A stretch of DNA of 64,000 nucleotides from Actinomycetota bacterium (lineage in GTDB: Bacteria > Actinomycetota > Acidimicrobiia > Acidimicrobiales > CAIXPF01): assembly GCA_016870475.1 (NCBI GenBank), contig VGBO01000004.1:4144-68143 (forward strand). Reading direction: 5' to 3'. The position numbers and the translations under genes are program-made. Below, piece after piece: positions 2,006 through 55,225 of this stretch. The notes under the pieces were generated by a model. That model saw only the letters and a program-made list of their open reading frames with translations, made no database searches and had not been told where the DNA came from. How positions within the stretch are numbered: position 1 is the stretch's first letter; each line of letters begins with the position of its first letter.

Positions 2006-2042
2006 GTGACGTCCGTCTCTTCTCGTCTGCGACGGACGTCAC
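2006..2042. repeat. perfect 12-bp inverted repeat (GTGACGTCCGTC-N13-GACGGACGTCAC) in the CoA-transferase/ligase intergenic gap
   Basis: Read directly. Arms are at 2006-2017 and 2031-2042, and the right arm covers the stop codon (2039-2041) of the upstream gene. It could be an RNA hairpin or a dimeric regulator site. Confidence 0.4.
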
Positions 2043-8661: not shown

Positions 8662-9105
8662 ATGTCTGCCCTCCCGCCGCTGCGGCTCCTGTTGCGCTCC
8701 GAGAGCGGCCGACGCTTCTTCCGCTACTGCGTCGTGTCCGGGTGGAACGTCGTGTTCGGACAGATCCTCCTGTTCGGCGTGCACCTGTGGGTCGAACGAC
8801 CAGGCGCGGCGAACGTGATCGCCGTGGTCGCCGGTCTCGGCCCCGCCTACCTCGTGAGCCGTCGATTCGTGTGGGAAGCGACCGGCAGCCACAGCGTGAC
8901 GGGCGAGATGCTCCCGTTCCTCGGGCTCACGGTGCTCGGCACCATCACCTCGACGGTCGCCGTCGAGATCGCCGGCGCGGTCACCGACGTCCGGATCGCG
9001 GTGAACCTCGCGAGCCTCTCGGCGTGGTTCGGTGTGTGGGTGGTCAAGTACGTGCTCCTCGACCGGATCATCTACCGGCGGCGCAACGCACTCGTCGCCC
9101 ACTGA
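8662..9105 (+). CDS. GtrA-family membrane protein
   Basis: 147-aa hydrophobic ORF with a GtrA-like pattern (RFFRYCVVSGWNVVFGQILLF ... VVKYVLLDRIIY). Confidence 0.75.
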   Translation: MSALPPLRLLLRSESGRRFFRYCVVSGWNVVFGQILLFGVHLWVERPGAANVIAVVAGLGPAYLVSRRFVWEATGSHSVTGEMLPFLGLTVLGTITSTVAVEIAGAVTDVRIAVNLASLSAWFGVWVVKYVLLDRIIYRRRNALVAH

Positions 9106-12220: not shown

Positions 12221-13527
12221 GGCCGGTCCGGCGTCATGGCGATCGTGCGGCGGTACTCCTCGACGGTGCGCTGCGCCATGATCCGCCAGCTCCAGTTCTC
12301 CACCACGCGTCGCCGCCCTGCGGCCCCGACCCCGGCCCGCAGCTCGGCGCCCCGTCCGAGGGTGGCGCGCAGCCCGTCGGCGAGTGCGGCGACGTCCCCG
12401 GCGGCGACCACGAACGCCGTCTCGCCGTGCGGGCCGACCACCTCGGGCAACGCGCCGCCGTCGGTGGCGACGAGCGGCACCCCGCAGGCCTGCGCCTCGA
12501 TCGCGGGGAGCGAGAACCCTTCGTACAGTGACGGGACGCACGCGACCTCGGCGGAGGCGTACAGGTCGACGATCGCGTCGTCGTCGACCCCCGACACGTT
12601 GGTGACGGCGTCCTGCAGCCCGAGCCGGTCGATGGTGCGGGCGGACTCGCCGCCCTCCTTGCGCCGGCCGATCACCACGAGGTGGGTCTCGGGTCGTTCC
12701 TCCCGCAGCACGGCGAGCGCCTCGAGCAGGAAGCGCTGTCCCTTGAGCGCCACGTCGGCCGACGCGGTGGTGACGATGCGGCCGGGGACGACGGGGACGG
12801 CGGGTCGGGGGGCGAACAGGTCGACGTCGACACCGACGGGGATCGTCGCCATGCGGTCGGGGCGGACCCCGAACTCGGTGCAGATGTCGCGGTGGGAGTT
12901 CTCCGACACGGTGATGATCCGCGGCATCCGCCGGGCGACCCGGACCTGCATGCGGGTGAACCCGTGCCAGCGGGCCTTCGCCCAGCGTTCCCGCCGGTTG
13001 CGGGCGTGCTCCATCTCGAGGCGACGGTCGACGGTGATGGGGTGGTGCACGGTCGCGACGAGCGGCAGTCCCGTGCGGAGGATGCCGAGCATCCCGTAGC
13101 CGAGGCACTGGTTGTCGTGGACCACGTCGAAGTCGGCGACCCGGTCACGGAGGTGTCGCCAGGCGCGCAGCGAGAACGAGAGCGGCTCGGGGAACGAGCC
13201 GGACATGAACACGCCGACCTCGACCGCGTCGATCCAGTCGCGCAGCTCCCACCAACCCGGCATTCGCATGGGGTGGTGGTCGTTGTAGATGTCGAGGCTC
13301 GGCAGCCGGGTGAGCGGCACCCGCTCGTCGAGCAGCGGGTACGGCTGTCCGCCGAGCACCTCGACGTGGTGCCCGAGGTCGGCGAGTGCCTTCGTGAGGT
13401 GACGCGTGTAGACGCCCTGGCCGCCGACGTGCGGTTTGCCCCGGTAGCTCAGGTAGGCGATCCGCAACGGCGCGTCGTGGACGGCGTCCGGGCGGGGCGG
13501 GGGGCTCGGCACTGGACCACTGTTCAC
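12214..13527 (-). CDS. glycosyltransferase family 4 (GT-B)
   Basis: 437-aa ORF: LRIAYLSYRGKPHVGGQGVYTRHLTKALADLGHHV ... CVPSLYEGFSLPAIEAQACGVPLVATDGGALPEVV (EX7E motif). Confidence 0.9.
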   Translation of the reverse strand: MNSGPVPSPPPRPDAVHDAPLRIAYLSYRGKPHVGGQGVYTRHLTKALADLGHHVEVLGGQPYPLLDERVPLTRLPSLDIYNDHHPMRMPGWWELRDWIDAVEVGVFMSGSFPEPLSFSLRAWRHLRDRVADFDVVHDNQCLGYGMLGILRTGLPLVATVHHPITVDRRLEMEHARNRRERWAKARWHGFTRMQVRVARRMPRIITVSENSHRDICTEFGVRPDRMATIPVGVDVDLFAPRPAVPVVPGRIVTTASADVALKGQRFLLEALAVLREERPETHLVVIGRRKEGGESARTIDRLGLQDAVTNVSGVDDDAIVDLYASAEVACVPSLYEGFSLPAIEAQACGVPLVATDGGALPEVVGPHGETAFVVAAGDVAALADGLRATLGRGAELRAGVGAAGRRRVVENWSWRIMAQRTVEEYRRTIAMTPDRPC

Positions 13528-13567
13528 GGTGGTCCCGTTGGACGCAAGGCGCGGCGGTGGCGCGCCC

Positions 13568-13573
13568 TACGAT
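13568..13573 (+). promoter_or_regulatory. -10-like TACGAT, 8 nt upstream of the dtd GTG (leaderless-type)
   Basis: Read directly: TACGAT cggcggcc GTG. Confidence 0.4.
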
Positions 13574-13581
13574 CGGCGGCC

Positions 13582-14034
13582 GTGCGGGCGTTGGTGCAGC
13601 GGGTGCTCGAGGCGTCGGTGACCGTGGTCGACGACGACGGCGGGCGTGAGGAGTCCGGTCGGATCGGGCCGGGCTTGTGCGTGCTCGTCGGGGTCACCCA
13701 CGGGGACGGCGTCGAGGAGGCACGGCGGCTCGCCGCCAAGATCTGGAACCTGCGGGTCATGGCCGACGACGACGGGGTGATGAACCGTTCGGTCGGTGAG
13801 ACGACCGGTGCGGTGCTCGTCGTCTCGCAGTTCACCCTGTACGGCGACACCGAACGGGGTCGACGGCCGAGCTGGGTGGCGGCGGCTCGACCGGAGCACG
13901 CCGAACCGCTCGTCTCCCTCGTCGTCGACGAACTGCGGGCGCTCGGTGCGACCGTCGGCACCGGACGGTTCCGCACCCACATGGAGGTGGCGCTCACGAA
14001 CGACGGTCCGGTCACGCTCCTGATCGAGGTGTGA
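13582..14034 (+). CDS. dtd: D-aminoacyl-tRNA deacylase
   Basis: GTG 13582 gives VRALVQRV...VVSQFTLYGDT...GRRPSW...MEVALTNDGPVTLLIEV, with the SQFTL and NDGPVT signatures. Confidence 0.9.
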   Translation: MRALVQRVLEASVTVVDDDGGREESGRIGPGLCVLVGVTHGDGVEEARRLAAKIWNLRVMADDDGVMNRSVGETTGAVLVVSQFTLYGDTERGRRPSWVAAARPEHAEPLVSLVVDELRALGATVGTGRFRTHMEVALTNDGPVTLLIEV

Positions 14035-15493
14035 CCCGTCGGTCCGTCCGCCGGTCGGCGTAGATCGCCCCGGCGACGAGGCCGAACGCTACGCCCAGCC
14101 ACGGCCACGGGCCGGTGCGGACCGCCGGCGTCGTGCCGGTGCGACGTTCGACCGTCGCCCGCAGCACCCGGGCCTCCGAGGTGCCCGTGCGGTCGAGGAC
14201 CGTGCCGTCCGGGTCGACGACGGCGGAGAACCCCGTCGGCGCCGCCTGCAGCACCCAGCGGTCCGACTCGATCGCCCGCAGACGTGAGGAAGCCACCTGC
14301 TGGGACTGCACGATCGTGAGCCAGTACGACGAACCGTTCGTCGGGTTGAGGAGCACCTCGCCGCCGTCGCCGACGCCGTCGCGGGCCCGTCGTTCGAAGA
14401 ACACCTCCCAGGAGATGACGATCGCGAGTCGACCGACCGGGGTGTCGAGGCGGGCCGGTCCGGTCCCGGCCCGCGCGTCGCGTGGGATGAACGTCGACGC
14501 CGCACCGCCCGACAGCAGGTCGACGGCGCCGCGGAACGGCACGTACTCGCCGAAGGGGACCCGCTGCACCTTGTCGTAGCGGTCGGTGAAGGTGCCCTCC
14601 GGGGTGATCACGAGGCTCGCGTTCCGGAAGTGGTCGTCGAACCCCTCGACCACACCGGGGACGACCGTCGCGTCGAGGCGACGGGCGAGCGCCGCGAGCT
14701 CCGCACCTTCCGGTGTGTCCTCGACGAACCCGTCGACGGTGACGACGTTCTCGGGCCACAGCACCAGGTCCACCGGCCCGGTGATCCCCTCGGTCGCCTG
14801 GACGTGACGGCGGTACGGCAACGCCGGGTCGGTGTCGACCGCACGGGTGCGTTGGGGTCCGCCCCCTTGGACGACGGCGACGTCGAGCGTGCCCACGGTG
14901 CGTGCCCGGGGGAGGAGGGTCGCAGCCGCGACGATGACGACGGTGCACGCGAGCCCGATCGCGACGGCGCGACGGTGGCGCAGCAGCGCCGCCCGCAACG
15001 CCACCCCGCCGCCGACCACGACGAGCGTGACGAGCACGCCACCCCCGAGGCGGGCGACCACGGCGAAGGGGCTCGCCGCCTGGCCCATCGGCACGGTCGA
15101 GAGCGGCACCCCACCGAAGGGGAACGACCAGCGGGCGAACTCGGCGAGGGCGAGCGCCCCCGGGAGGGCCAGCCAGCGCCACGGCCGCCGGCCGGGCACG
15201 ACGGCGGCGGCCACGCCGGGCGCGGCGGACAGGACGAACGCTGCGGCGACGTACCCGGGCGGCGAGAAGTCGAGCATCCACACGGTCGACGGCGCGAGCC
15301 ACCCGACCCCGGCGAGCCAGCCGACGGCGAACCGGCCCCGGCGACCCGTGCCCTCGAGTGCGACGTCCAGCACGGCGACGGCGACGAAGGCGAGCGGCCA
15401 CCAACCCCACGGCGGAACGGAGGCGGCGAGGAGCAGGCCGCCACCGACGGCCGTGCCGAGCCGGCGTCCGTTGCGTCGGAGCCGTCCCGTCAC
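14012..15493 (-). CDS. lnt: apolipoprotein N-acyltransferase-like CN-hydrolase membrane protein (Ser at the catalytic Cys position)
   Basis: N-terminal multi-TM region plus a CN-hydrolase domain: LVLWPENVV (Glu), YDKVQRVPFGEYVP (Lys), LAIVISWEVFF (expected ICYE-type Cys is Ser, codon 14411-14413), NGSSYWL...RLRAIESDRWVLQAAPTGFSAVV. GTG 15493 overlaps the hemY stop (GTGA). Confidence 0.75.
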   Translation of the reverse strand: MTGRLRRNGRRLGTAVGGGLLLAASVPPWGWWPLAFVAVAVLDVALEGTGRRGRFAVGWLAGVGWLAPSTVWMLDFSPPGYVAAAFVLSAAPGVAAAVVPGRRPWRWLALPGALALAEFARWSFPFGGVPLSTVPMGQAASPFAVVARLGGGVLVTLVVVGGGVALRAALLRHRRAVAIGLACTVVIVAAATLLPRARTVGTLDVAVVQGGGPQRTRAVDTDPALPYRRHVQATEGITGPVDLVLWPENVVTVDGFVEDTPEGAELAALARRLDATVVPGVVEGFDDHFRNASLVITPEGTFTDRYDKVQRVPFGEYVPFRGAVDLLSGGAASTFIPRDARAGTGPARLDTPVGRLAIVISWEVFFERRARDGVGDGGEVLLNPTNGSSYWLTIVQSQQVASSRLRAIESDRWVLQAAPTGFSAVVDPDGTVLDRTGTSEARVLRATVERRTGTTPAVRTGPWPWLGVAFGLVAGAIYADRRTDRRVTPRSGA

Positions 15494-16881
15494 GCGGTGC
15501 GGTCCCCACCGTCGAGGAGGCGACCCGCTGCCGTGCGACCCGACACGATGCACGCCGGGATCCCGAGACCGCGCAACGCTGCGCCGGCGAGCGCGACGCC
15601 GGGGAGCGCCGCCGCGAGCGCTGCCTCGGCGGATTCGACGCGAGCGAGGTGGCCCGGGCGGTACTGGGGGAGCGACGCGTCCCAGCGGTGCACGCGGGCG
15701 TCGGTCGGGCGGGCGGTGATCCCGAGCAGGGTGACGAGGTCGGCGCGCACCGCGTCGAGGAGCTCGTCGTCGGTGAGGCGGGTGCAACGCGTGTCGTCGC
15801 TCCGTCCGACCGACACCCGCAGCCGTACGACACCGTCGCCGCCCTGGTGCGCCCACTTCGACGACGCGAACGAGCAGGCGGTCACCAACAGGCCGGCGGA
15901 CCGGGGCACGAGCAACCCGGACGCGTCGAGGGGCACCGCAACGTCGGCCACCCGGTAGGCGAGCGCGGCGATCGCTACCGAGGCGTAGCGGAGGTCGGCG
16001 AGCACGGCCGCCGTCGCGGGCGCCTCGGCGGCGAGCAGTCCGGCCCCGACCGCGGCGGGGGCGGCGAGCACGACCCGGTCGGCCCGTTGCGGCCCCTTCG
16101 GGGTGTCCACCTCGTACCCCGTCCCCGCCCGCCGGAGCGCGGTCGCGGGCGTCGAGCCGTGCACGCGGTCGGCACCGATCGATTCGACGAGCCGTTCCAC
16201 GAGTCGGCCGGTTCCGGTCAGCGGGGTGAGGAACACGGGAGTCGCGCTCGCGGTCGCAGCGCGCAGCGTCGTGCGCAGCGCTCGCACGAGACTCGCGTCG
16301 GTGCGGGCGGCGGCGGCGAGCTGCGCTGCACCGCACTGGAGGCTCAGCTCGTCGGCGTCGCCGGCGTTCACCCCCGACAGCAGCGGGTCGACGAGCCGTT
16401 CGAAGACCTCGTCCCCGACGCGGCGGCGCACGAGTGCGCCGACCGACTCGTCGTCGGTGTGGTCCCGTTCGGGGTCGTCGGGGGCGCGGTCGAGGTCGGC
16501 GGCGACCGCCCGCAGCCCGTCCGCGCTCAGCAGGCCGGAGTGGGCGAGGGCGTCGAGGTCGGTGGGCACGCCGAGCACGAGACCCTCGGGGAGTCGACGG
16601 GCGACGCCGTCGTGCCACACGAGCGCCGAGCCGATCGCCGGGCTGGTCAGCTCGTCCTCGAGGCCGAGCTCCCGGCAGAGCTCCACGGCACCGGGGACCC
16701 GGGCGAGGAACGCGTCGGCGGCCTCGTCGAGGGCGACGCCGGCGAACGGCGTGGTCTGGAGCTTCCCGCCGGGGCGTCCCGCGTCGAGCACGACGACGTC
16801 CGCGCCGCGACGGGTGGCCTCCCAGGCGGCGGCGAGGCCGGCGATGCCGCCGCCGACGACCACGACCCGCACGGCGGTCAT
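15490..16881 (-). CDS. hemY: protoporphyrinogen/coproporphyrinogen III oxidase (FAD-dependent, HemY/CgoX type)
   Basis: ATG 16881 gives [41 protein letters not shown]..., a Rossmann FAD motif. Length is 463 aa. It follows hemE with an ATGA overlap. Confidence 0.85.
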
Positions 16882-17930
16882 CGTTCGTCGGTGGTGTCCG
16901 ACCAGGTGTGCACGAGGTCGACGAGGCGGGCGAGCACGTCGGGATCGGTCTCCGGCAGCACCCCGTGCCCGAGGTTGAAGACGTGCCCCGGATGGCCGCC
17001 GTTGCGCCGCAGCACGTCGGTGGCCTCCGCGGCGACGGCGTCCCAACCGGCGAGGCAGACCGCCGGGTCGAGGTTGCCCTGCAGAGCGTGCCCGTCGCCG
17101 ACCCGGGTACGGGCCGCGTCGAGCGGGACGCGCCAGTCGACCCCGACGACGTCGGCGCCGGCGTCGCGCAGCAGCGGGAGCAGCTCGCCGGTCGTCACAC
17201 CGAAGTGGATCTTCGGGACGCCGAGGTCGTCGAGCGCCGCGAACACGCGCTGCGAGTGCGGGAGGACGTGCCGGGTGTAGTGCGCCGGGTGCAGCGCCCC
17301 GGCCCAGCTGTCGAAGAGCTGTACGGCGGAGGCGCCGGCGGCGACCTGGGCGCGCAGGGAGGCGATGGCGTAATCGGCGAGCCGGCCGAGCAGCGCGGCG
17401 AAGAGCTCCGGGTCGCCGAGCATGAGCGCCTTCGTGCGCGTGTAGGTCCGTGACGGGCCGCCTTCGACGAGGTAGCTGGCCACCGTGAACGGTGCGCCGG
17501 CGAACCCGATGAGCGGTACCGGCAGCTCCGCGGTGAGGAGCCGCACGGTCTCCTGCACGTAGGGGACGTGCACGTCGGGGTCGAACGGCGGCAGTCGATC
17601 GAGGTCGTCGGCGTCGCGGAACGGCTGCTCGGCGACCGGTCCCACGCCGGGGCGGACGTCGACGCCGAACCCGACGGCGGCGACGGGCACGACGATGTCG
17701 GAGTACAGGATCGCCGCGTCGACGCCGTATCGGCGTACCGGTTGAAGGGTGATCTCGGTGGCGAGCGCCGGGTCGCGCACCGCCTGCAGGATCGAGCCGG
17801 TCCCGCGGATGGCCCGGTACTCGGGCAGGGATCGTCCGGCCTGGCGCATGAACCACACGGGCACGCGGTCGTGGGGTCGGCGCCGGCAGGCGGCGAGGAA
17901 CGGCGAGTTCTCGGGGGTGTGTCCAAGCAT
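16878..17930 (-). CDS. hemE: uroporphyrinogen decarboxylase
   Basis: ATG 17930 gives [42 protein letters not shown]...ILYSDIVVP..., the canonical URO-D N-terminus. Length is 350 aa. Confidence 0.93.
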
Positions 17931-17941
17931 CGGTGGTGGGG

Positions 17942-18901
17942 TCAACGGTTCGAAGGGATTCGGAGACGTCTGGCCCAGGCGGGTTCGGCGCGGAGTCGGG
18001 CGGCGACGCTCGCGGCGGCGGCGTCGGCGGCGGCGGTCGGGTCGTCGTGGCCGCCGGTCGCCTGCTCGAGGACGAGCACGGGCGCATCGGCACCGTGGAT
18101 GCGGGCGACTTCCCGCCGGAGTTGGCGGCGTTGCCACCACAGCGCCGTGGCTGGGACGACGACGACGACGACGTCGAACCCGAGGCCGGCGACGAGGTCG
18201 GCGTTGGTCGCCGACCAGGCGGACGCCTCGACGTACCGTCGGGCGCCGATCGTCACCGGGGTGTTCGCCCACCGGTCGCTGCGGGCGGCACGGACCGCGG
18301 TCTCGGTGGTGGTGCCCGGGTGGTCGTCCCTGCCGAACACGATGCGGCGGCCATCGGGGAGTCGCACCGTGCACAGCCACAGCCCTTCCGGCCAGCCATC
18401 GTCCGTCCGCCGGTCGGCGTCGGTCGTGGCGTGGCGCGGGGTGACCCCGATCGGCACGGTGGTGGGCACGGGGCGGACCCCGTCGAGGATCAGGCCGGGT
18501 CGGGGTGGGCGTCGGAGCGTGGCGCGCAGGGCGAGCACCGGGTCGGCGGGTCGACGGGAGGTGGGCGGACCCGCCGTCGCCGGCGTCACGACTTCGGTCG
18601 CCGTCGCCTCGGTGCGGAGCGCCCCCGTCGGTCGCCCGCGGCGGAGCCCGACGGCGAGGTCGGCGCCGGCGCCGGTCCCGACGACGAGGTCGGCGGTGCG
18701 CGGGTCCCACCCGGTGCCGGTGGCGAGGCCGTCGAGCGCGCCGGCGAGCCAGGCCGCGGAGGTCGGGCCGCCCGCGCCGAGCACGAGGGCGACGGCCGCG
18801 GCGGGTCCGTCGGCGGTGTCGTGTCGCTCGTCGGCCACCGGGGCATGCTCCCACGGTGTCGGGCCGGCGGGCGATTCCGTCTGCGGTCGGCGCCCGGTCA
18901 T
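17942..18901 (-). CDS. patatin-like phospholipase-fold protein, catalytic dyad apparently substituted
   Basis: ATG 18901 overlaps the lhr stop (ATGA). [21 protein letters not shown] fits the Gly-rich oxyanion motif. The GxSxG position reads [11 protein letters not shown], and the DGG position reads [11 protein letters not shown]. Confidence 0.6.
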
Positions 18902-23491: not shown

Positions 23492-24295
23492 GTGCCCGAG
23501 GGCGACACGATCTGGCGGGTCGCCGCCCGTCTGCGACCGGCGCTCGTCGGTCGGGAGGTGCGGCGGTTCGAGGCGCCGCGCCTCGTCGGGCCGCGGCCGC
23601 GCACCGGTGAGGTCGTCCAGGCGGTCGACGCGGTCGGCAAGCACCTGCTCGTGCGGTTCTCCTCGGGCGTGGTGGTGCGCACCCATCTGCGGATGACGGG
23701 CTCGTGGCACCTGTACCGGGACGGGGAGCCCTGGCGTCGAGCGGCGCACCTCGCCCGACTCGTCGTCGGCGTCGACGGGTGGACGGCGGTGTGCTTCTCG
23801 GCGCCGGTCGTCCGGTCGAGCGTCGACGCCGCCGACGGCGTCGCCCACCTCGGTCCCGACCTCACGTCCCCCGAACCGGATCTCGACGTCGCCGTCGACC
23901 GCCTCGGCCGTCTCGCCGAGGCCGGCACGTGCATCGCCGACGCCCTGCTCGACCAGCGGGTGGCGGCGGGGATCGGCAACGTCTACAAGTCGGAGGTGCT
24001 GTGGGCGTTGCGGGTGCACCCGCGCACGCCGGTGGCCGCCATCGACCCCGCGACCCGACGCGGCCTGCTCGAGCGGGCGCACGCACTGCTGCGGGCGAAC
24101 CTCGGACCGGGTCGGCGGGTGACGGCACCGACGGTCCCCGGCGGTCTGGCGGTGTACGGACGGTCGGGGCGGGGCTGTCCGCGTTGCGGCACCCCCATCG
24201 TGCGAAGCGTGGTCGGCGTCACGGCGCGGAGCACCTACCACTGTCCCCGCTGTCAGGAGCCGACGTCGGCCACGGACGGTACGCTGCGCGCATGA
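23492..24295 (+). CDS. nei: Fpg/Nei family DNA glycosylase (endonuclease VIII-like)
   Basis: GTG 23492 gives (M)PEGDTIWR, with catalytic Pro2/Glu3. An H2TH region is present (LLDQRVAAGIGNVYKSEVLW), and a C-terminal zinc finger (CPRCGTPI...YHCPRCQ). SD GGGAGGA lies upstream. Confidence 0.87.
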   Translation: MPEGDTIWRVAARLRPALVGREVRRFEAPRLVGPRPRTGEVVQAVDAVGKHLLVRFSSGVVVRTHLRMTGSWHLYRDGEPWRRAAHLARLVVGVDGWTAVCFSAPVVRSSVDAADGVAHLGPDLTSPEPDLDVAVDRLGRLAEAGTCIADALLDQRVAAGIGNVYKSEVLWALRVHPRTPVAAIDPATRRGLLERAHALLRANLGPGRRVTAPTVPGGLAVYGRSGRGCPRCGTPIVRSVVGVTARSTYHCPRCQEPTSATDGTLRA

Positions 24296-24834
24296 CGGTG
24301 AGGTTCCTCGATCCACGGGCGGAGCCGGGTGCGCCGGTCGAGCCGTACACACTCGGCATCGATCTCGGGTCCGGCCCGGTGACGATCGGCATGTTGGCGA
24401 ACGGGTTCCCGGACTCGGTGCCGTTCCTCGCCGAGGTCGAGACGGCGTTGCGGACGGTGCTGCCCGACGCCCGGTTCGTGCACTACGACAAGGGCAACGC
24501 GTCGACGATCGCATCGGACGAGCTGCTCGGGCGGATCGTCGGTGAGTGCCAGGCGGTCGTCGCCGCGTACGGCCATTGAGGGTCCTGCACCACCGGCACC
24601 GTGCGTGACGGCGTGAACCTGGCGAGGCGGGACGTCCCCGCAGTGGCGCTCGTCTCCTCCGAGTTCTGGGCGCAGGGCGAGTTCATCGCCCGTTCGGTCG
24701 GCATGCCCGACATCCCCCGGGTCTGCTTCGAGCACCCGGTCGCCGGTGCGGGGGTGGCCGTGATGCGCCGCGTCGCCGCCGCGATCCGTGACGACATCGT
24801 CGCGTCGCTCGCCGCGCGGGGAGTCGCGTCGTGA
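24292..24834 (+). CDS. candidate UGSC-motif selenoprotein (two track ORFs joined through in-frame TGA 24577-24579)
   Basis: ORFs 24292..24579 and 24601..24834 share one frame. The only stop between them is one TGA. Read-through gives ...ECQAVVAAYGH-U-GSCTTGTVRDGVNLARRDVPAVALV... The ATG overlaps the nei stop (ATGA), and the terminal stop overlaps the next gene's GTG (GTGA). Confidence 0.7.
24577..24579 (+). other. in-frame UGA, candidate selenocysteine codon (U of UGSC)
   Basis: The TGA is flanked by GGC CAT and GGG TCC TGC. A stem-loop lies at 24582-24609 (GUCCUGCAC-N10-GUGCGUGAC). Confidence 0.6.
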
Positions 24835-25913
24835 GCGTCCTGCTCGAGGCGGCGGACGAGTACGCGGCGCTCGAGCGGTTGCACGACCTCGGCTGCACCG
24901 ACGGGCTGCCGGTCGTGGTCCCCACCCCCGACCGGGTGGAGCGGATGGTCGTGGCGTCGGGCCTCCCCGGTGACGTGAGCCTCGGGACGATGGGCCCGAA
25001 CCACGGCAACGCCTCGATCGAGACCGTCGCGGCGTGCGCGGTCATGGCGGGTTGCCTACCCGACCACCTGCCGGTGGTGCTCGGCGCGGTCCGCGCCGCG
25101 CTCGACCCGAGGTTCGATCTCACCGAACTGCAGGCGACGACGCACGCGATCGCTCCGTTCATGATCGTGAACGGCCCGGCCCGGCACGCGTGCGGGCCGA
25201 TCGCCTCCGGATTCGGTGCGCTCGGTCCGGGGTTCCGGGCGAACGCGTCGATCGGACGGGCGTTGCGGTTGTGCATGATCAACATCGGCGGCGCACGGGC
25301 GGGGGTGTCGGACATGGCGCTGCTCGGCCATTCCGGCAAGTTCACGTTCTGCATGGCGGAGGACGAGGAGTCCTCGCCGTTCGAGCCGTTGCACGTCGCG
25401 CTCGGGTACGACCCGTCGGCGTCGACGGTGACGCTCGTGGGCACGGAGGCGCCGCACTCGGTGATCTTCGTCGGCGATGCGGACGACCCGACGGCACCGG
25501 ATCGCCTGTTGACGACGCTGGGCCTGAGCCTGGCGACGGTCGGTGCGAACAACGCCCACTTCGGCGGTGGCACCGGTGTGGTCGTGCTGAACCCGGATCA
25601 CGCCGCGGTGTTGCACCGTGCGGGCCTCGACCGCCGTTCGCTGGCCGAGGCGATCTGGGAGCGGGCGGCGAACCCGCGATCGCTCATGGCCCGGCTGAAC
25701 CCGTCGATGGTGCGTCCGCCGTCGGGTGCCGACGAGCCGTTCCGGGCCTTCCGGTCGCCGGACGACCTCGTGATCATCGCGGGTGGCGGCTCGGGCCTGT
25801 ACTCGATGGTGTTGCCGTCGTGGGCGGCTGGTCCGCACGCGAACCCTGCGGTCACCGCCGTGGTGGACCTCGACCAGGCGTGTGAGATCCCGGGGTTCGC
25901 CGGATCGGCGTAG
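24831..25913 (+). CDS. conserved-looking hypothetical protein (360 aa), translationally coupled to the UGSC gene
   Basis: The ORF has globular, non-shadow composition (LGCTDGLPVVVPTPDRVERMV...; FMIVNGPARHACGPIASGFGALGPGFRANASIGRALRLCMINIGG...). GTG 24831 overlaps the upstream stop (GTGA). I recognise no family. Confidence 0.75.
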   Translation: MSVLLEAADEYAALERLHDLGCTDGLPVVVPTPDRVERMVVASGLPGDVSLGTMGPNHGNASIETVAACAVMAGCLPDHLPVVLGAVRAALDPRFDLTELQATTHAIAPFMIVNGPARHACGPIASGFGALGPGFRANASIGRALRLCMINIGGARAGVSDMALLGHSGKFTFCMAEDEESSPFEPLHVALGYDPSASTVTLVGTEAPHSVIFVGDADDPTAPDRLLTTLGLSLATVGANNAHFGGGTGVVVLNPDHAAVLHRAGLDRRSLAEAIWERAANPRSLMARLNPSMVRPPSGADEPFRAFRSPDDLVIIAGGGSGLYSMVLPSWAAGPHANPAVTAVVDLDQACEIPGFAGSA

Positions 25914-26798: not shown

Positions 26799-27200
26799 TC
26801 AGGCCCGTCCCATGATCCGGTCGACGGTGATCTCGATCGTGGCGCGGTCCGCCCGGGCGGCGGGTTCTCGGTACCGCTCGGCGTAGCGCCGGACCCCCTC
26901 GGCGTTGGCGTCGTCGTCGGTGCGGAGCGTCGCCGCGCCCTCGAGGGTTAGCCAGCGCCCGCCGTCGACCTGGCACACGGCGACCCGGCTGCCGGGTGCG
27001 GCGGCGAGCAGCTTCGCCTTCACCGATCCGGTCCAGGTGATGATCCGGGCGGTGCGGGTCGAGGCGTCGTAGCTGAACCCGATCGGGGTCACGTGCGGGG
27101 TGCCGTCCGGGCGCGGTGCGGTGAGGGTGGCGAGGTGTCGTTCACGGAGGAACTCGAGCACGTCGGCGGGCGGATCGGCGGGGTCGATGCGGGGTGCCAT
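26799..27200 (-). CDS. PPOX-class (pyridoxamine 5'-phosphate oxidase-like, probably F420/FMN-dependent) protein
   Basis: 133-aa ORF: LEFLRERHLATLTAPRPDGTPHVTPIGFSYD...ARIITWTGSVKAKLL. Confidence 0.8.
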   Translation of the reverse strand: MAPRIDPADPPADVLEFLRERHLATLTAPRPDGTPHVTPIGFSYDASTRTARIITWTGSVKAKLLAAAPGSRVAVCQVDGGRWLTLEGAATLRTDDDANAEGVRRYAERYREPAARADRATIEITVDRIMGRA

Positions 27201-27208
27201 TCACGTCA

Positions 27209-27214
27209 ATGTTA
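27209..27214 (-). promoter_or_regulatory. -10-like TAACAT, 8 nt upstream of the PPOX ATG (leaderless-type)
   Basis: Minus strand reads TAACAT tgacgtga ATG. Confidence 0.4.
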
Positions 27215-27250
27215 GGGGCGGGCCGCGGCGTGGACAGCCGGTCGGAGTCG

Positions 27251-27256
27251 TATGCT
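27251..27256 (+). promoter_or_regulatory. -10-like TATGCT, 8 nt upstream of the cyclase ATG (leaderless-type)
   Basis: Read directly: TATGCT caggcgtc ATG. Confidence 0.4.
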
Positions 27257-27264
27257 CAGGCGTC

Positions 27265-30200
27265 ATGACCTGCTCGTCGTGCGGTGCCGAGCTCCCCGCC
27301 GGGAGCCGGTTCTGCCCGTCCTGCGGGCAGCCGCAGTCGGCGCACACCGAGGAGCGGCGGGTCGTCACCGTGCTGTTCGCCGATCTGGTCGGGTTCACCG
27401 CCATCGCCGAGTCGATGGACCCGGAGGCGGCGAAACTGCTCGTCGACCGGGGGTTCGAGCGGCTCGTCCGGGACGTGGTCGGGTTCGGTGGTCGGGTCGA
27501 CAAGATCCTCGGCGACGCCATCGTCGCCCTCTTCGGCGCCCCCATCGCGCACGAGGACGATGCGGAGCGCGCGGTCCGGACGGCGTTGCAGATGCAGAAG
27601 ACGATGCGGGCTTACGCCGCCGAGGTCGGGGCCGACGTCCGGCTTCGGATCGGGGTGAACACCGGTGAGGTCCTCACCGGCGCGATGCGCTCCGGTGGCG
27701 AGTACACGGCGATGGGCGACGTGGTGAACACGGCGAGTCGGCTCCAGTCGACGGCGGCGCCCGGTGAGGTGTTCGTCGGCGGGCCGACCTACGAGGCGAC
27801 GCGGGACGTGATCGTCTACGAGGCGGTCGGCCCCGTGCAGGTGCGCAACCGCGAGGAGCTGGTCGACGCCCACCGTGCGGTCGACGTGCTGGTGCTCCCG
27901 GGGCGGCGTCCGCGTCGTCGGCAGACCCCGCTCGTCGGACGCGACGCCGAGGTCGCGCTGTTGCGCAGCGCGGTGTCGCTCGCGTTCCGCCAGGAACGCA
28001 CCCAGCTCGTGCTGCTGCTCGGGGACTCCGGGGTCGGCAAGACCCGTCTCGCCGACGAGGTCGTCGCGTGGTCGGTTCGGGAGCACCAGGCCAGGGTGCT
28101 CGAGAGCCGTTGCGTGCCCTATGGCGAGGCGAACGTCTGGTATCCGATCGGGTCGGCGGTCCGGTCGCTCTGCGGCCTCGAGGAGGATGCGCCGGCGGAT
28201 CGGACGAGGGCCGCGTGCGAGGACCTCGTCGCCGATGCGCTGGGCGAGCCCCGTGACGCTGCGGCGGTGCGGCGGACGGTCGCGTCGTTCCTCGGTCTGA
28301 TGGGTGCGGAGTCGGCCGGCCGCGATCAGGAACCGGGTCGGGTCCGTACGGAGGCTTCCGCTGCGTTGATCCGCGTCCTCGAGTCGCTCTCGGAGCGTTC
28401 ACCGATCTTCCTGCGGATCGCCGATCTGCACTGGGCCGACGACGTGGTGCTCGAGCTCGTCGACGATCTCGTCGACGGCCTCGGTCGGAGTCCGGTGGTG
28501 CTCATGGCGTCGGCCCGCCACCTGATCGACGAGCGATGGGCGCCGAGGACGGGCCGGCACAACCACCTGATCCTGAACCTCGACCCGCTCGACGCCGCAG
28601 CGACCGAGCTGCTGCTCGACACGCTGCTCGGGACCTCGCTCGACGAGGCGACCCGATCGGTGCTGCTCGCACGGAGCGGTGGGAACCCGCTGTTCCTCGA
28701 GGAGCTCGTCGCGCTCGTCGACCGGCAGGGGTTGGCGGACGCCCGCCCGGTCGAGATCGTCGGGGAGGGTGCGGAGACCGACCTGCCGGAGACGTTGCGC
28801 GGGCTGATCGCGGCACGGCTCGACGGGCTGCCCCCCGAGCTGCGGACGGTGCTCGACCAGGCGTCGGTGATCGGCAGCAGCGGGTTGCTCGCCGAGCTCG
28901 AGGTGCTGTGCTCGGTCGCCGGCGCGGAAGGTTGGGCGGCGGCGCTCGACGATCTCGTCGACCGGGAGCTGATGGAGCAGTCGGGCCCGCGCTGGTCGTT
29001 CCGTTCGGATGTGATCCGCGAGGTCGCCTACGGCACCTTGACGAAGGCGGACCGGTCGAGCCGGCACGCCGCGCTCGCCCGGTGGATGGCGGACCGGGCG
29101 TCGGGCCCGGTCGCCGACGACGAGGCGGTCGACCGGACGGCCTTCCAGTTCGCGCAGGCGGCGGTGCTCGCGTCGGATGTCGCGCTCGGTGGGACCGACG
29201 CCCGCGAACTGCGCGACCGTGCGCTGTCGTGGCTGTTCGAGGCAGCGCGCCGGGCGCGTCGCACCGAGTCCTACGTGCTCGCCGCCCGACTGTGCACGCA
29301 GGCGCTCGACCTGATCGGCGATGACCCCTCCGACCGCCGGCTCGACTTCCTGCTCGGTCGGGCCGAGGCGAGGGTCGGCCTGTTCGAGCTCGCCGGGGCT
29401 CGGGCCGACGTGGAGGAGGCGCGCCGGGTCGCCGCCGCTCTCGGCGACGAGCGGGGCCATTCCCGGGTGCTGCTCGTGGAGGGCGATCTCCAGCAGCGGG
29501 CCGGTGACGTCGACGCCGCCGCGGCGGCGCTCGACGACGCCCTGGCGCGGTTCCGGGCGACGGAGGACCGTCGCGGGGAGGCGGAGGCGTTGCGTCGCCT
29601 CGGCACGGTGCGGATGTTCGAGCGCGACTACGTCGGTGCGGAGGAACGCACCCGTGAGGCGCTCGCGATCTTCGAGGAGCTCGAGGACCGTCGCGGTGAG
29701 GCGTGGGCGCTGCAGAGCCTGGCGTGGGTGGCGTACCTCGCCGATCGGGTCACCGAGGTCGAGGAGCGCATCGCGGCGGCGTCGTCGAGCTTCGAGTGGC
29801 TCGGGGACGTGGCGGGGATCGGCTGGTCGAACGCGTTGTTGGCGTTCACCCGGTTCCAGCAGGGCCGGTTCGAGGAGGCCGAGCAGCTCGCCGAGACGAC
29901 GCTCGTCGACGCGACCGGGCGCGGTGACCGGTTCGGCGAGTCGATGATGGCGCTCGTCACGGCGCTCGTGCGCCTGTGGACGGGACGCACGGTGCAGTCG
30001 ATCGAACGGGCGGAGGAGGCGGCGGAACTGTTCGCCCGGATCGGCGACGCAGTCGGACAGGCCCGGGCCGAGGCGACGATCGGCCGCGCCCGGCTGATGT
30101 CGGGCGATGTCGTGGGCGGGTTCGAGACGATCGACGCGGCGATCGCCGCGCACCGCCGGACCGGACGACCGGACGCGGTGGCGATCCTCGCGACCGTCGG

Positions 30201-30810
30201 GCTCGCCGCGTCGAATGCGACCGGCGACCCGGATCGTGCGGCCGCCTACGGGACGGCGCTGCAGGGGGCCGGGATCCCCGAGGAGATCATCGGTTCGACC
30301 GACCGGACGATCGCGCAGGCGGTGGCGTTGCTCCAGCGCGGCGAGGCGCCTGCCGCGGCGGAGCTGCTCGAGGTGCGTGCGTCGGCGGACGGGGCCGGCC
30401 AGCTCGCGTCGCTCGCCGTGGCGACGGCGTTCGCCCGCCTCGCCGAGGGACGCGCCTCGGAGGCGTTAGCGCTCACCGACCGGGTCCACGAGGCGGCGCG
30501 GAGCACCTACGTCGACCTCGCCACGAGCTACGTGGTGGCCGGGTTGGCGCACGCGGTCCGGGGCGACGCCTCGGAGATGATCGCCGCCTTCTCCGCGGCC
30601 CGCCAGGAGCTCGATGCCACCGCGGACGTGCTCGGTCAGGCCGTGGTGCGGCTCGCCGAGGCCGAAGCGGCGGCGGCGATGGGAGCGATGTCGGCCCGGG
30701 GGCTGCGACGTGAGGCCGACACCCGGCTCGCCGAGCTCGGGATCACCGCCGACGGTTGGCGAACCCTCTACCGGTCGGTGCTCGCGTCGGTCGAGCCCGT
30801 GCGGGGCTGA
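27265..30810 (+). CDS. zinc-ribbon / class III adenylate-guanylate cyclase / AAA(STAND) ATPase / TPR multidomain regulator
   Basis: ATG 27265 gives MTCSSCGAELPAGSRFCPSCG (zinc ribbon). Cyclase motifs follow: VTVLFADLVGFT, GDAIVALFGAP, RIGVNTGEV, MGDVVNTASRL. The P-loop is LLLGDSGVGKTRL. The long C-terminal half is helical and TPR-like. Confidence 0.85.
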   Translation: MTCSSCGAELPAGSRFCPSCGQPQSAHTEERRVVTVLFADLVGFTAIAESMDPEAAKLLVDRGFERLVRDVVGFGGRVDKILGDAIVALFGAPIAHEDDAERAVRTALQMQKTMRAYAAEVGADVRLRIGVNTGEVLTGAMRSGGEYTAMGDVVNTASRLQSTAAPGEVFVGGPTYEATRDVIVYEAVGPVQVRNREELVDAHRAVDVLVLPGRRPRRRQTPLVGRDAEVALLRSAVSLAFRQERTQLVLLLGDSGVGKTRLADEVVAWSVREHQARVLESRCVPYGEANVWYPIGSAVRSLCGLEEDAPADRTRAACEDLVADALGEPRDAAAVRRTVASFLGLMGAESAGRDQEPGRVRTEASAALIRVLESLSERSPIFLRIADLHWADDVVLELVDDLVDGLGRSPVVLMASARHLIDERWAPRTGRHNHLILNLDPLDAAATELLLDTLLGTSLDEATRSVLLARSGGNPLFLEELVALVDRQGLADARPVEIVGEGAETDLPETLRGLIAARLDGLPPELRTVLDQASVIGSSGLLAELEVLCSVAGAEGWAAALDDLVDRELMEQSGPRWSFRSDVIREVAYGTLTKADRSSRHAALARWMADRASGPVADDEAVDRTAFQFAQAAVLASDVALGGTDARELRDRALSWLFEAARRARRTESYVLAARLCTQALDLIGDDPSDRRLDFLLGRAEARVGLFELAGARADVEEARRVAAALGDERGHSRVLLVEGDLQQRAGDVDAAAAALDDALARFRATEDRRGEAEALRRLGTVRMFERDYVGAEERTREALAIFEELEDRRGEAWALQSLAWVAYLADRVTEVEERIAAASSSFEWLGDVAGIGWSNALLAFTRFQQGRFEEAEQLAETTLVDATGRGDRFGESMMALVTALVRLWTGRTVQSIERAEEAAELFARIGDAVGQARAEATIGRARLMSGDVVGGFETIDAAIAAHRRTGRPDAVAILATVGLAASNATGDPDRAAAYGTALQGAGIPEEIIGSTDRTIAQAVALLQRGEAPAAAELLEVRASADGAGQLASLAVATAFARLAEGRASEALALTDRVHEAARSTYVDLATSYVVAGLAHAVRGDASEMIAAFSAARQELDATADVLGQAVVRLAEAEAAAAMGAMSARGLRREADTRLAELGITADGWRTLYRSVLASVEPVRG

Positions 30811-50827: not shown

Positions 50828-51544
50828 TCATCGCCCGGCGGCGGCGACGACGAGGTCGGCGAACCGGGCGGCGCTGAGCTCGCCGGAGGCCCGTGCCACG
50901 ACCTTGCCCTGGGCGTCGATCGCGACGAAGGACGGGAACGACGACGCGCCGGTCGCCCGGAAGGCGCTGCCGGTGGCGTCGTCGGCGATGGTCTGGACGA
51001 ACCACCCCTCCTCGGTCAGCCACGACGCCGGCGGGTAGTTGCCGCGGCTGCGATCGACGGCCGTCGAGATCGCGTACACGTCGACGAGCGAGGCCCGGGG
51101 GTCCCGGCCCAGCCAGTCGGCGACGACGGGGACCTCGCGCTGGCAGTGCGGGCACCAGTGCGCGACGACCATCACGATCTTCGGCCGACCGTCGTTCGCG
51201 ATGGTCACCGGCAGGCCGCTCGCCACGTCCTGGCCTCTGATCTCGGGGAAGGCCAGCCCCTTCGCCCGGTCGGCGCCGCTCTCGGGGAACGCGGGCAGCG
51301 ACGCCCCGACGACACGCACGGTGCCGACCGCGACCCCGCCGGCGGACGCGCCCGAGGTGCTGACCGCGCCGTCGCCCGATGCCGTGGTCGGCCGGGTGGT
51401 CTGCGTCGGGGACGCGGTGTCGTCCTCCCCGCCACCGGTCAGCAGCGCCACCGCAGCCGCGGCGACGACGAGGCCCACGACGATGGCGACGATGCCGGGG
51501 ACCGCCGAGCGGCGACGCTTCGAGGACGGTGCAGGCGAGCTCAT
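50828..51544 (-). CDS. TlpA/ResA-like membrane-anchored thiol:disulfide oxidoreductase (redoxin)
   Basis: N-terminal TM anchor, Thr/Ser-rich linker, and a thioredoxin fold with the WCPHC motif. ATG 51544 overlaps the DsbB-like stop (ATGA). Confidence 0.85.
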   Translation of the reverse strand: MSSPAPSSKRRRSAVPGIVAIVVGLVVAAAAVALLTGGGEDDTASPTQTTRPTTASGDGAVSTSGASAGGVAVGTVRVVGASLPAFPESGADRAKGLAFPEIRGQDVASGLPVTIANDGRPKIVMVVAHWCPHCQREVPVVADWLGRDPRASLVDVYAISTAVDRSRGNYPPASWLTEEGWFVQTIADDATGSAFRATGASSFPSFVAIDAQGKVVARASGELSAARFADLVVAAAGR

Positions 51545-52101
51545 GGGACGGGTACCTCCGAGGTGGTCGCAGGAACGGCGGTTCGGGTCGGACGGCCGGC
51601 GAGGAACAGGGCGACGACGGTGACGAACCCGGCGAGGGCCATCATCGGGATGGTCACGAACCCGAGGGCGGTGACCTCACGGACCGTGCACGGTGCCGCG
51701 GCGTCGCAGGACGAGGACTGGTCGGGGAACGCCTGGAGCTGCACGTGGTACACCGACACCGCGGCCCCGAGGACGGCGAGCGGCACGGCATAGCGGCCCA
51801 CCGTCCGGTCGCCACGGACCGCGGCGATGGGCAGGACGACGGCGAGCGGGTACATGGCGATCCGCTGGTACCAGCACAACTCGCAGGGCACGAACCCGGC
51901 GATCTCGGAGTAGTAGAGGCTGCCGGCTGTGGCGGCGACCGCGACCGCCGCGGCGAGCCACGGTGCGACCCGGGCGACGTCGGCCCGGACGGTGGCGGGG
52001 CCCGGGCCGGGCAGCAGCCGAAGCGCGGTGATCGCCACCGAACCGCCCACGGCGACGATTGCGAGGAGCGCCAGGAACTTGCTCGTGGTCGCGACATCCA
52101 T
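51541..52101 (-). CDS. disulfide bond formation protein, DsbB/BdbC family
   Basis: 186-aa 4-TM protein with CELCWYQR in the first loop and a second Cys pair (SSCDAAAPC). Confidence 0.8.
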   Translation of the reverse strand: MDVATTSKFLALLAIVAVGGSVAITALRLLPGPGPATVRADVARVAPWLAAAVAVAATAGSLYYSEIAGFVPCELCWYQRIAMYPLAVVLPIAAVRGDRTVGRYAVPLAVLGAAVSVYHVQLQAFPDQSSSCDAAAPCTVREVTALGFVTIPMMALAGFVTVVALFLAGRPTRTAVPATTSEVPVP

Positions 52102-52110
52102 CGGACCGAG

Positions 52111-52116
52111 AGCCTA
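52111..52116 (-). promoter_or_regulatory. -10-like TAGGCT, 9 nt upstream of the DsbB-like ATG
   Basis: Minus strand reads TAGGCT ctcggtccg ATG. Confidence 0.35.
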
Positions 52117-53606: not shown

Positions 53607-54535
53607 GCTCGTCCGATCTCGCAGCGACGACGGAGCAGCGCCGTGTCGGTCTCGGCGCCGCCGCCGTGCTCGTCGCCACCGTGTGCTGGAGCTTCGGCGG
53701 GGTCATCGCCGTGGCGATCGACGCCCCGGGCGTCGTGACGTCCTTCTACCGCCTGTGGATGGGCAGCGTGTTCCTCGTCGCCATCGGCGCCGCGACCAGG
53801 CGGCTGCCGACGTGGCGCGAGCTCCGGCAGGTCGCACCGTCCGGCGCACTGTTCGGACTGAACCTCTGCCTGTTCTTCACGGCGCTGAACTACACGACCG
53901 TCGCGAACGCCATCATCGTGGGGGCACTCACCCCGGTGTTGATGCTGCCCATCGCCGCCCGGCTGCTCGGGGAGCGCCTCGACGCCGTGAAGATCGGCTG
54001 CGCGCTCGTCGCCGTCGGCGGGGTCGTGTTCGCCGTGCTCACCGCGCCGGGGGGTGGCGAGTCGGGTGGTCGGTCCCTGCGCGGTGACCTCCTGGCGGTC
54101 GGCTCGCTGCTGCTGTGGATCGGCTTCCTCACCTCGGCGAAGCGGGTGCGGGCGCAGGTCGGCACCCTGCAGTTCCTGACCGCAACGACGATCAGCGCGG
54201 CGGTCGCGGTCACACCCCTCGCCGTCTTCGGACCCTACGACCTCGGCGTGCTCGAGGGGACCGACTGGCCGTTGCTCGTCGCGCTCACCGTCGTGCCGGG
54301 CATGGTGGGGCACGGGCTGATCGCCTGGGCGCAGCGCCACATCGACGCGACGGTGTCGTCGGTGCTCATGCAGGGCGAGCCGGTCGGCGGGACGATCCTC
54401 GCCGCGGTGCTGCTCGGCCAGGCGATGTCGGTGCTGCAGGGTTTCGCGATGGCGATCGTCGTCGGTGCGCTCGCCGTCCTCGCTGCGGCCGGTCGGCGCC
54501 GGGCGGGACCGCTCGAGGAGCCGGCGTCCACCTGA
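53603..54535 (+). CDS. EamA/DMT-family transporter
   Basis: ATG 53603 overlaps the tag stop (ATGA). The product is a 310-aa, 10-TM-type protein. Confidence 0.85.
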   Translation: MSSSDLAATTEQRRVGLGAAAVLVATVCWSFGGVIAVAIDAPGVVTSFYRLWMGSVFLVAIGAATRRLPTWRELRQVAPSGALFGLNLCLFFTALNYTTVANAIIVGALTPVLMLPIAARLLGERLDAVKIGCALVAVGGVVFAVLTAPGGGESGGRSLRGDLLAVGSLLLWIGFLTSAKRVRAQVGTLQFLTATTISAAVAVTPLAVFGPYDLGVLEGTDWPLLVALTVVPGMVGHGLIAWAQRHIDATVSSVLMQGEPVGGTILAAVLLGQAMSVLQGFAMAIVVGALAVLAAAGRRRAGPLEEPAST

Positions 54536-54556
54536 GCGCACAGTCGCCGCCGGCCC

Positions 54557-54562
54557 TACGCT
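54557..54562 (+). promoter_or_regulatory. -10-like TACGCT, 6 nt upstream of the msrA ATG (leaderless-type)
   Basis: Read directly: TACGCT cggccc ATG. Confidence 0.4.
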
Positions 54563-54568
54563 CGGCCC

Positions 54569-55225
54569 ATGGCGCTGTTCGGATCCTCGAAGTTGCACCT
54601 CCCCACGGCGGAGGAGGCCCTGCCCGGTCGCACCGATTCCATGGCCGTGCCGTCGGCCCACCACGTGAACGGTCACCCGCTCGTCGGCCCGTGGGCCGCC
54701 GAGCTCGAGGTCGCGTACGTCGGCATGGGCTGCTTCTGGGGTGCGGAACGGATCTTCTGGAAGTCCGACGGGGTGGTCACCACGGCGGTCGGCTACCAGG
54801 GTGGCCACACGCCGAACCCGACGTATGAGGAGGTGTGCTCCGGTCGCACGGCACACACCGAGGCGGTGCTCGTCGTGTTCGACACGAATCGGACCACCTA
54901 CGAGCGGGTGCTCGCCACGTTCTGGGAGAACCACGACCCGACCCAGGGCATGCGGCAGGGCAACGACGTGGGGACCCAGTACCGCTCGGCCGTCTACACG
55001 ACCTCCGAGACGCAGGCCGAGATCGCCCGGGCGACCCGGGCCACCTACCAGGAGCGTCTGCGGGCGGCCGGGTACGGCGAGATCACGACCGAGATCGCAC
55101 CGGCCGGCCCGTTCTTCTACGCGGAGGCCTACCACCAGCAGTACCTCGCCAAGGTGCCGAACGGGTACTGCGGCATTGGCGGCACGGGCGTGACCTGCCC
55201 GGTGGGGCTGGTCGGCCGCAGCTGA
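54569..55225 (+). CDS. msrA: peptide-methionine (S)-S-oxide reductase
   Basis: GMGCFWGAE (Cys form), [45 protein letters not shown]. Confidence 0.93.

Follow-up and report, generated by a model that had tools for sequence, protein, structure and literature searches.

The 64,000-nucleotide stretch of Acidimicrobiia DNA analyzed here (the window) has a G+C content of 73% and includes, on its plus strand, two short open reading frames (ORFs) at 24292–24579 and 24601–24834, which the initial annotation had joined across an in-frame TGA into a candidate selenoprotein gene. The two ORFs are in the same frame, separated by this single TGA (24577–24579) and by 21 nt free of other stops. The joined frame begins with an ATG at 24292 that overlaps the stop codon of an upstream nei2-like gene (ATGA), and its terminal TGA (24832–24834) overlaps the GTG start codon of the next ORF (GTGA), just as had been described. 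Read-through gives the peptide ...AAYGH-*-GSCTTGTVRDGVNLARRDVPAVALVSSEF..., containing AAYGH-U-GSCTTGTVRD, in which selenocysteine (Sec) would occupy the first position of a UxxC motif. The proposal that the whole constitutes one cistron for a selenoprotein of the UGSC family was borne out by several lines of evidence: a hidden Markov model (HMM) match that spans the TGA, homologs with Sec or Cys at the same column, a TGA in 81/81 sequences, codon periodicity, and an RNA hairpin. Overall, we estimate the probability that the gene encodes a Sec-containing UGSC protein at roughly 0.9.

The read-through product, with U replaced by C for the HMM searches, matched the Pfam family PF24696 (UGSC) with a score of 131.1 bits, compared to a gathering threshold of 25 (E = 6e-38). 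Residues 30–173 were aligned with positions 27–170 of the 172-position model, across the TGA. A second match, to the NCBIfam model NF041046, “UGSC family (seleno)protein”, covered model positions 4–146 of 147 (93.7 bits, E = 1e-26). An exhaustive profile search returned 1379 UGSC representative clusters at E ≤ 1e-3. The homologs in the databases fall into two kinds: proteins of ≈180 amino acids that read GH-C-GSCTSS, and proteins of ≈100 amino acids that all end in ...AAYGH, the latter being gene calls cut at the same codon. The GH-C-GSC sequence is invariant in 39 full-length homologs, and the Cys form is found in the more distant relatives. When the homologs are aligned, the TGA column is occupied by Cys (in the context GH-C-GSC) or by Sec.

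UGSC has been described as a selenoprotein family in several publications (PMC2398784, PMC5029168, PMC13188914). Its presence in selenoproteome surveys of marine metagenomes, which the initial annotation had mentioned, was confirmed: UGSC was reported in both the Sargasso Sea and the Global Ocean Sampling (GOS) surveys, and in the latter, with 255 Sec vs. 21 Cys forms, it ranked in the top five selenoprotein families by abundance (PMC2398784). A 2016 survey of about 5200 genomes detected 33 UGSC genes, spread over 26 of them. The family is listed as uncharacterized in reviews from 2022 and 2026, and our literature searches returned no paper characterizing its function. The gene described here is a currently mis-split member of this established family of predicted selenoproteins.

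Conservation was evaluated by comparing the window with the best 80 of 410 relatives, which were obtained in a scan with one genome per species. These 80 loci, all of which had full-length tblastn matches to the UGSC gene, show 54–95% identity and belong almost exclusively to metagenome-assembled genomes (MAGs) of Acidimicrobiia or Acidimicrobiales. The codon at the column is TGA in all 81 sequences, never TAA, TAG, TGC or TGT, and it is invariably followed by GSCT[TS]GTVRD. Such an arrangement of a conserved TGA and then a conserved frame is far beyond chance. The entropies at codon positions 1, 2 and 3 were 0.54, 0.56 and 1.25 bits upstream of the TGA, and 0.64, 0.40 and 1.41 bits downstream of it, and the PF24696 and tblastn alignments run on past the TGA to the C-terminus.

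The TGA could in principle have arisen from faulty sequencing or assembly, or from a recent nonsense mutation, in what is really a Cys-form UGSC gene or a pseudogene, since it is only one base removed from TGC or TGT, and gene callers do split the gene into two ORFs. However, the TGA is found in 80/80 species-level relatives across the identity range given above, the downstream frame is under purifying selection, and a hairpin specific to the TGA form is conserved along with it (see below). Furthermore, an independent metagenome assembly (ENA ERZ27247375, locus L085), which is 99.5% identical to the window over 12.9 kb but differs from it at 61 positions, has an identical TGA context. An error or a fresh mutation is therefore exceedingly improbable.

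Only marginally more credible is an arrangement of two small genes, one for a 95-residue protein ending at the TGA and one for a 77-residue protein starting from the GTG at 24601. Such a GTG exists, and in the independent assembly (L085:1317–1859, equivalent to 24292–24834 of the window) the public gene calls consist of precisely these 95- and 77-residue ORFs, each of which matches PF24696. However, the seven codons from the TGA to the GTG (GSCTTGT), which hold the defining motif of the family, are conserved as amino acids while varying synonymously: the Gly codon of the motif (GGN) occurs in all four forms, and the Ser codon is AGC or AGT in 78 sequences and TCC or TCG in three. This variation, including the switch between the AGY and UCN families of Ser codons, indicates that the stretch from the TGA to the GTG is translated. 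Given the selection on these codons, it is irrelevant whether or not the GTG is preceded by a Shine–Dalgarno sequence or a −10 element. The Cys homologs and the fusion proteins described below are single polypeptides across the junction, and the invariance of the GTG is explained by its position in the hairpin loop rather than by a role as start codon. Thus, the independent assembly, the conservation and the selection together rule out sequencing error, pseudogene and separate genes for practical purposes, leaving a single recoded gene.

TGA is also the ordinary stop codon in the window. Among 41 likely genes in the window, 35 end in TGA and six in TAG, and the terminal stop of the UGSC gene itself is TGA in 76/81 sequences. 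The genetic code has therefore not been reassigned; rather, a single mRNA holds one recoded and one terminating UGA, told apart by the hairpin.

This hairpin includes a run of 15 nt, GGCACCGUGCGUGAC, at nucleotides +19 to +33 counted from the U of the UGA, in which the third-position entropy is 0.00 bits over five consecutive degenerate codons, compared to about 1.3–1.4 bits in the flanking coding sequence. RNAalifold independently gave one hairpin, at columns 17–35 (24593–24611). Base pairs were counted over 73 related sequences. Pair 17–35 is CG in 59 of these, GC in 10 and unpaired in four, while pair 18–34 is CG in 65 and UA in eight. In all, 99.1% of the hairpin cells are paired, and the observed covariation score was reached by 0/500 shuffles. 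Both variable pairs change in a compensatory manner only, and these changes replace residues on each side (Thr/Ser and Gly/Ala/Ser); the protein sequence co-varies so that the RNA stays paired. The free energy of the hairpin is −4.9 kcal/mol.

The Cys-form relatives, of which eight loci were examined for gene order and six genes for the hairpin, differ at this point. In 6/6 genes, the 15-nt core has 3–8 mismatches and only 2–3 of the six pairs are kept. Where the GTVRD peptide is unchanged, the Cys forms use ACG, CGC and GAT where the Sec forms have ACC, CGU and GAC. This degradation of the hairpin even at the same peptide demonstrates that it tracks the TGA and not the protein. The comparative sequence evidence thus supports the assignment of the hairpin as a functional selenocysteine insertion sequence (SECIS). 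In the SECIS elements of E. coli and Moorella, SelB recognizes a G and a U in the loop, and by analogy we propose the CGUGC loop as the SelB contact. Spacing and a loop G are among the criteria of the bSECISearch model.

A longer stem-loop starting at 24582 had previously been suggested to lie where a bacterial SECIS would be expected. The predicted arms, GUCCUGCAC-N10-GUGCGUGAC, are indeed present in the sequence, but the 8-bp stem (24582–24609) was rejected as the SECIS: its outer three pairs are unpaired in 63–70 of the 73 sequences, its inner five pairs are invariant, hence uninformative, and no covariation is seen. The 3′ arm is common to both hairpins. Other copies of the SECIS core were only chance near-matches that lacked an in-frame TGA.

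The same 15-nt core was also seen near position 10280 of each of seven loci (L026, L040, L061, L062, L065, L068 and L076) that are labelled as Spirochaetales, Deltaproteobacteria, Syntrophales, Pirellulaceae, Pseudomonadales, Gammaproteobacteria and Thermoanaerobaculia. Possible explanations for an identical core in different phyla include horizontal transfer of the gene pair, a very tight SelB constraint common to these phyla, or mis-binned contigs.

A number of results weigh against the interpretation of the gene as a selenoprotein with a SECIS, or against its functional extension below. NCBIfam searches of all plausible ORFs found no selA, selB or selD in the 64-kb window, and ARAGORN found no tRNA there. 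Neither the window nor 1.3 Mb of related loci gave a match to E. coli SelA, SelB or SelD used as tblastn probes, and there was no tRNA-Sec among the few ARAGORN calls in the related loci. The Sec machinery is therefore unlinked to the UGSC gene. Folding of 24577–24640 by itself was no better than that of shuffled sequences (z = +0.5), and Rfam models SECIS_1 to SECIS_5 had no match at E ≤ 10 within 24000–25200, nor was there a gathering-level match to Rfam anywhere in the window. Since single-sequence folding is uninformative, the hairpin is visible by cross-sequence comparison only; it is also small, and each covarying pair may stem from just one evolutionary event. The NF041046 score falls below the equivalog cutoff of 125 bits, and, as the homology is clear even though this cutoff is missed, we claim membership at the level of the Pfam family only. 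The literature searches found no experimental report of selenium incorporation for any UGSC protein. Finally, Foldseek searches against the PDB found no informative structural relative of either UGSC or ORF360, the product of the adjacent gene, and the Se–S redox couple and UGSC–ORF360 complex considered below are inferred rather than observed.

Three ARAGORN calls were unusual: a 98-nt “tRNA” with a four-base anticodon (L048:8453–8550, minus strand), a 95-nt tRNA-Ala(ggc) (L003:12271–12365, minus strand) and another tRNA-Ala(ggc) (L079:10843–10924, plus strand). Two of them, those in L048 and L079, fall within the coding region of ORF360 or on its opposite strand. A UCA anticodon is present in none of the three, which are probably false positives of G+C-rich DNA.

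Alternatively, the hairpin might cause the UGA to be recoded to a residue other than Sec, for example Cys carried by a tRNA-Sec-like tRNA, or might stimulate read-through by its structure. In favor of this are the negative searches for Sec machinery, and natural Sec-to-Cys recoding through SelB-dependent systems is reported for some bacteria. We nevertheless regard this as improbable. The position, size and G/U loop of the hairpin fit bacterial SECIS elements, Sec is the usual outcome of such an arrangement, and selenoproteome surveys repeatedly find UGSC as a Sec/Cys pair (PMC2398784). Moreover, according to a 2026 preprint, every one of the 84 complete Actinomarinales genomes has selA, selB, selC and selD. 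Actinomarinales is another order of Acidimicrobiia, and the universal presence of the machinery in a sister order offers indirect support for Sec decoding here. The coordinates of the Sec-form gene, its recoding signals and the adjacent gene are collected in Table 1.

Table 1. Features of the predicted UGSC selenoprotein locus (window coordinates).
Feature	Position	Strand	Description
UGSC-family gene (predicted selenoprotein)	24292..24834	+	180 sense codons, one of them for Sec, followed by terminal TGA; single frame
In-frame UGA, most probably read as Sec (residue 96)	24577..24579	+	TGA in 81/81; aligns with invariant Cys of homologs
U-G-S-C redox motif (predicted)	24577..24588	+	Codons UGA GGG UCC UGC; G, S and C invariant as amino acids, codons varying
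Initially annotated stem-loop	24582..24609	+	Not the conserved structure; outer pairs unconserved, no covariation
Putative SECIS hairpin, CCG.CAC[CGUGC]GUG.CGG	24593..24611	+	6 bp, G/A mismatch, 5-nt apical loop; starts 13 nt past the UGA
Invariant core of putative SECIS, GGCACCGUGCGUGAC	24595..24609	+	15 nt, codons Gly-Thr-Val-Arg-Asp; identical in 81/81
Apical loop, CGUGC	24600..24604	+	Invariant in all sequences; starts 20 nt after the UGA; proposed SelB contact
GTGA overlap of UGSC terminal stop and partner-gene start	24831..24834	+	Translational coupling
ORF360	24831..25913	+	Uncharacterized family, 360 aa; directly downstream of UGSC

ORF360 directly follows the UGSC gene, in the same orientation, in 80/80 Sec-form loci and in 8/8 Cys-form loci. 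The downstream gene of the Cys forms encodes an unannotated protein of ≈360 residues that was 47% and 56% identical to ORF360 in the two cases checked. The genes for nei, a helicase and an enoyl-CoA hydratase are each common to only 2–10 of the 80 loci, and no third conserved neighbor was found among the related loci. An apparent neighbor cluster comprising 63 loci was discarded as a single-linkage artifact of Arg/Gly-rich spurious ORFs. The stop of the UGSC gene and the start of its partner overlap by 4 nt (NTGA) in 59/81 sequences. In addition, the 541–630-residue proteins among the top 150 UGSC clusters are fusions whose ORF360 part gave blastp E-values between 1e-26 and 1e-83. Fusions with UGSC at the N-terminus and ORF360 at the C-terminus occur in at least seven lineages, in the same order (P0249, P0271, P0313, P0342, P0350, P0363 and L091). 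One of these, L091, is a Sec-form fusion with a 567-codon frame that reads AAYGH-TGA-GSCTVGTVRD and has the same SECIS core. A “UGSC/Unknown_1” fusion was previously noted in GOS reads, with Unknown_1 described as a conserved domain without known function from aquatic organisms (PMC2398784, Fig. S1A). P0271, P0313, L091 and the other fusions agree with this account and probably correspond to the one from GOS reads.

Homologs of ORF360 make up at least 4828 clusters, all labelled hypothetical. ORF360 itself had no Pfam match at E ≤ 10, searches over 66 members yielded none in Pfam, NCBIfam likewise had none, and no relative was found in the PDB by sequence or profile. An AlphaFold2 (AF2) model had a predicted local distance difference test (pLDDT) score of 87.3, but Foldseek against the PDB was unconvincing; the best match was the alpha subunit of a class I fumarate hydratase, with a template modeling (TM) score of 0.28–0.32 and a probability of 0.57. 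Five Cys are conserved in the family, and numerous His, Arg, Asp and Asn residues are invariant, a sequence pattern that suggests that ORF360 is an enzyme.

Alternatively, UGSC might act as a stand-alone thiol or selenol oxidoreductase, its adjacency to ORF360 merely being inherited operon structure. In two proteins, P0264 and P0333, UGSC is fused to a small CxxC domain instead of to ORF360. However, UGSC and ORF360 stay together in several phyla although every other neighbor changes, the pair persists in the Cys forms at 47–56% identity, and the overlap in 59/81 sequences and the same-order fusions in at least seven lineages point the same way. A stand-alone function is unlikely in our judgment, if clearly less so than the alternatives to Sec decoding discussed above, and we favor a functional pairing of UGSC with ORF360.

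This extra domain, also present in P0249, is C-terminal, ≈90 residues long, and contains the motif C-x-[ED]-C-[LV]-[VM]-P (at residue ≈231 in P0264, ≈236 in P0333 and ≈598 in P0249). In P0264 and P0333 it comes right after UGSC, and in P0249 after the fused ORF360 domain. Its presence may point to a thiol relay involving a third redox module. Five Cys-form loci (L083, L084, L087, L089 and L090) are surrounded by varied genes of small-molecule catabolism, encoding amidohydrolases, a TauD dioxygenase, a D-amino-acid oxidase, an ornithine cyclodeaminase-like protein, a TctA transporter, a CoA-transferase and a short-chain dehydrogenase. These neighbors could guide substrate screening.

An AF2 model of a UGSC Cys homolog (pLDDT = 91.8) consists of five parallel beta-alpha units, with the C/U-G-S-C motif at the N-terminus of the helix that follows strand 3. 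A profile search of the PDB matched nothing, and the best Foldseek matches in the PDB were only generic flavodoxin-like folds, with TM scores of 0.4–0.5: the flavodoxin (Fld) domain of flavorubredoxin, PurE and lumazine synthase. The fold is therefore predicted from the model to be flavodoxin-like. A “likely Trx-like fold” was proposed in the GOS paper (PMC2398784); the model does not bear this out, and no thioredoxin was among the top Foldseek matches. With its motif at a helix N-terminus, UGSC is thioredoxin-like in a functional sense only.

These observations strongly support a model in which translation starts at the ATG that overlaps the nei2-like stop, passes through the UGA at 24577 and ends at the second UGA (24832–24834). 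In this model, the 19-nt hairpin (24593–24611), 13 nt past the first UGA, marks that codon for recoding; the terminal UGA has no such hairpin. [quoted passage not shown] The model and the motif suggest that the product would be a 180-residue flavodoxin-like alpha/beta protein in which U96-G-S-C99 may cycle between a selenol/thiol and a selenenylsulfide. The adjacency, coupling and fusions are consistent with UGSC as a redox subunit and ORF360 as its substrate-binding or catalytic partner.

We tentatively propose, while rating the odds as somewhat below even, that UGSC and ORF360 form an unrecognized selenium-dependent enzyme, two-subunit or fused, in which a flavodoxin-fold selenenylsulfide center serves a catalytic partner of new fold. 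ORF360 has conserved His, Arg, Asp and Cys residues and a faint resemblance to Fe–S hydro-lyases. If the proposal is correct, such an enzyme would have a wide distribution, including Acidimicrobiia from water and soil, SAR86, Halieaceae and other groups.

Three further pairs of same-frame ORFs in the window abut across a TGA, at 2039–2041 (minus strand), 9103–9105 (plus strand) and 54533–54535 (plus strand). They were rejected as additional selenoproteins, being ordinary gene boundaries between a CoA-transferase and an acyl-CoA ligase, a membrane protein and a nitroreductase-like protein, and an EamA transporter and MsrA, respectively. A thiol-redox cluster (50828–52113, minus strand, and 54536–55225, plus strand) is positionally unrelated to the UGSC locus. 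It contains a DsbB/BdbC-like disulfide oxidoreductase (51541–52113), with msrA about 3 kb away, and an adjacent secreted protein (50828–51676) with a WCPHC motif that appears thioredoxin-like on reading its sequence and had no family match at the threshold used. The region 13500–18900 has many long overlapping ORFs on both strands due to its high G+C content. Profiles of G+C at third codon positions, combined with NCBIfam, assigned minus-strand genes for lnt (14012–15301), the protoporphyrinogen oxidase hemY (15490–16800) and hemE (16878–17852); the ORF at 17942–18601 (minus strand) had no family match. Downstream of the UGSC locus, 27100–30810 (plus strand) encodes a 1236-residue protein common to only 4/80 related loci, whose near-identical L085 copy had Pfam matches to guanylate/adenylate cyclase, the AAA_16 ATPase and TPR.

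In terms of annotation, the UGSC gene and hundreds like it in Acidimicrobiia MAGs, now listed as two short hypothetical ORFs, should each be merged into one. Because the gene calls are split and the NF041046 score is below its cutoff, standard pipelines would leave two hypothetical proteins. The gene also flags its organism as a selenium user. Nearly twenty years after the GOS survey, UGSC is still without a known function. What is added here is a minimal SECIS, for which the Cys forms serve as a natural negative control, an obligatory partner with fusions, and a predicted fold that differs from the literature. These findings make the function of UGSC easier to test; they are useful but incremental, and would not surprise selenoprotein specialists.

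Compared to the UGSC family as known from PF24696 and NF041046, the gene has the same domain, motif column, Sec/Cys dimorphism and length of about 180 residues, and among its close relatives the Sec form is far commoner than the Cys form. It differs in its NF041046 score and predicted fold, as noted above, and in its lineage, as Acidimicrobiia MAGs are not discussed in the papers on the family considered here. Like the SECIS elements of E. coli fdhF and fdnG and Moorella fdhA, the putative SECIS is an intracoding hairpin just 3′ of the UGA, with G and U in the apical loop, an unpaired position in the stem and constrained synonymous sites. It differs from known bacterial elements in being very short (6 bp), with a 15-nt core that is identical across several phyla. 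Glycine reductase (GrdA/GrdB) and D-proline reductase (PrdB) are multi-subunit selenoenzymes whose catalytic partner is served by a small redox subunit containing Sec. UGSC differs from GrdA, GrdB and PrdB in that its Pfam matches are to PF24696 only and none of these proteins was among its Foldseek matches in the PDB; ORF360 belongs to no known family, and most hosts are aerobic Acidimicrobiia of water or soil, not Stickland fermenters. The likeness lies in the arrangement, a UxxC/CxxU-type selenol–thiol center on a small protein that is encoded beside its partner subunit.

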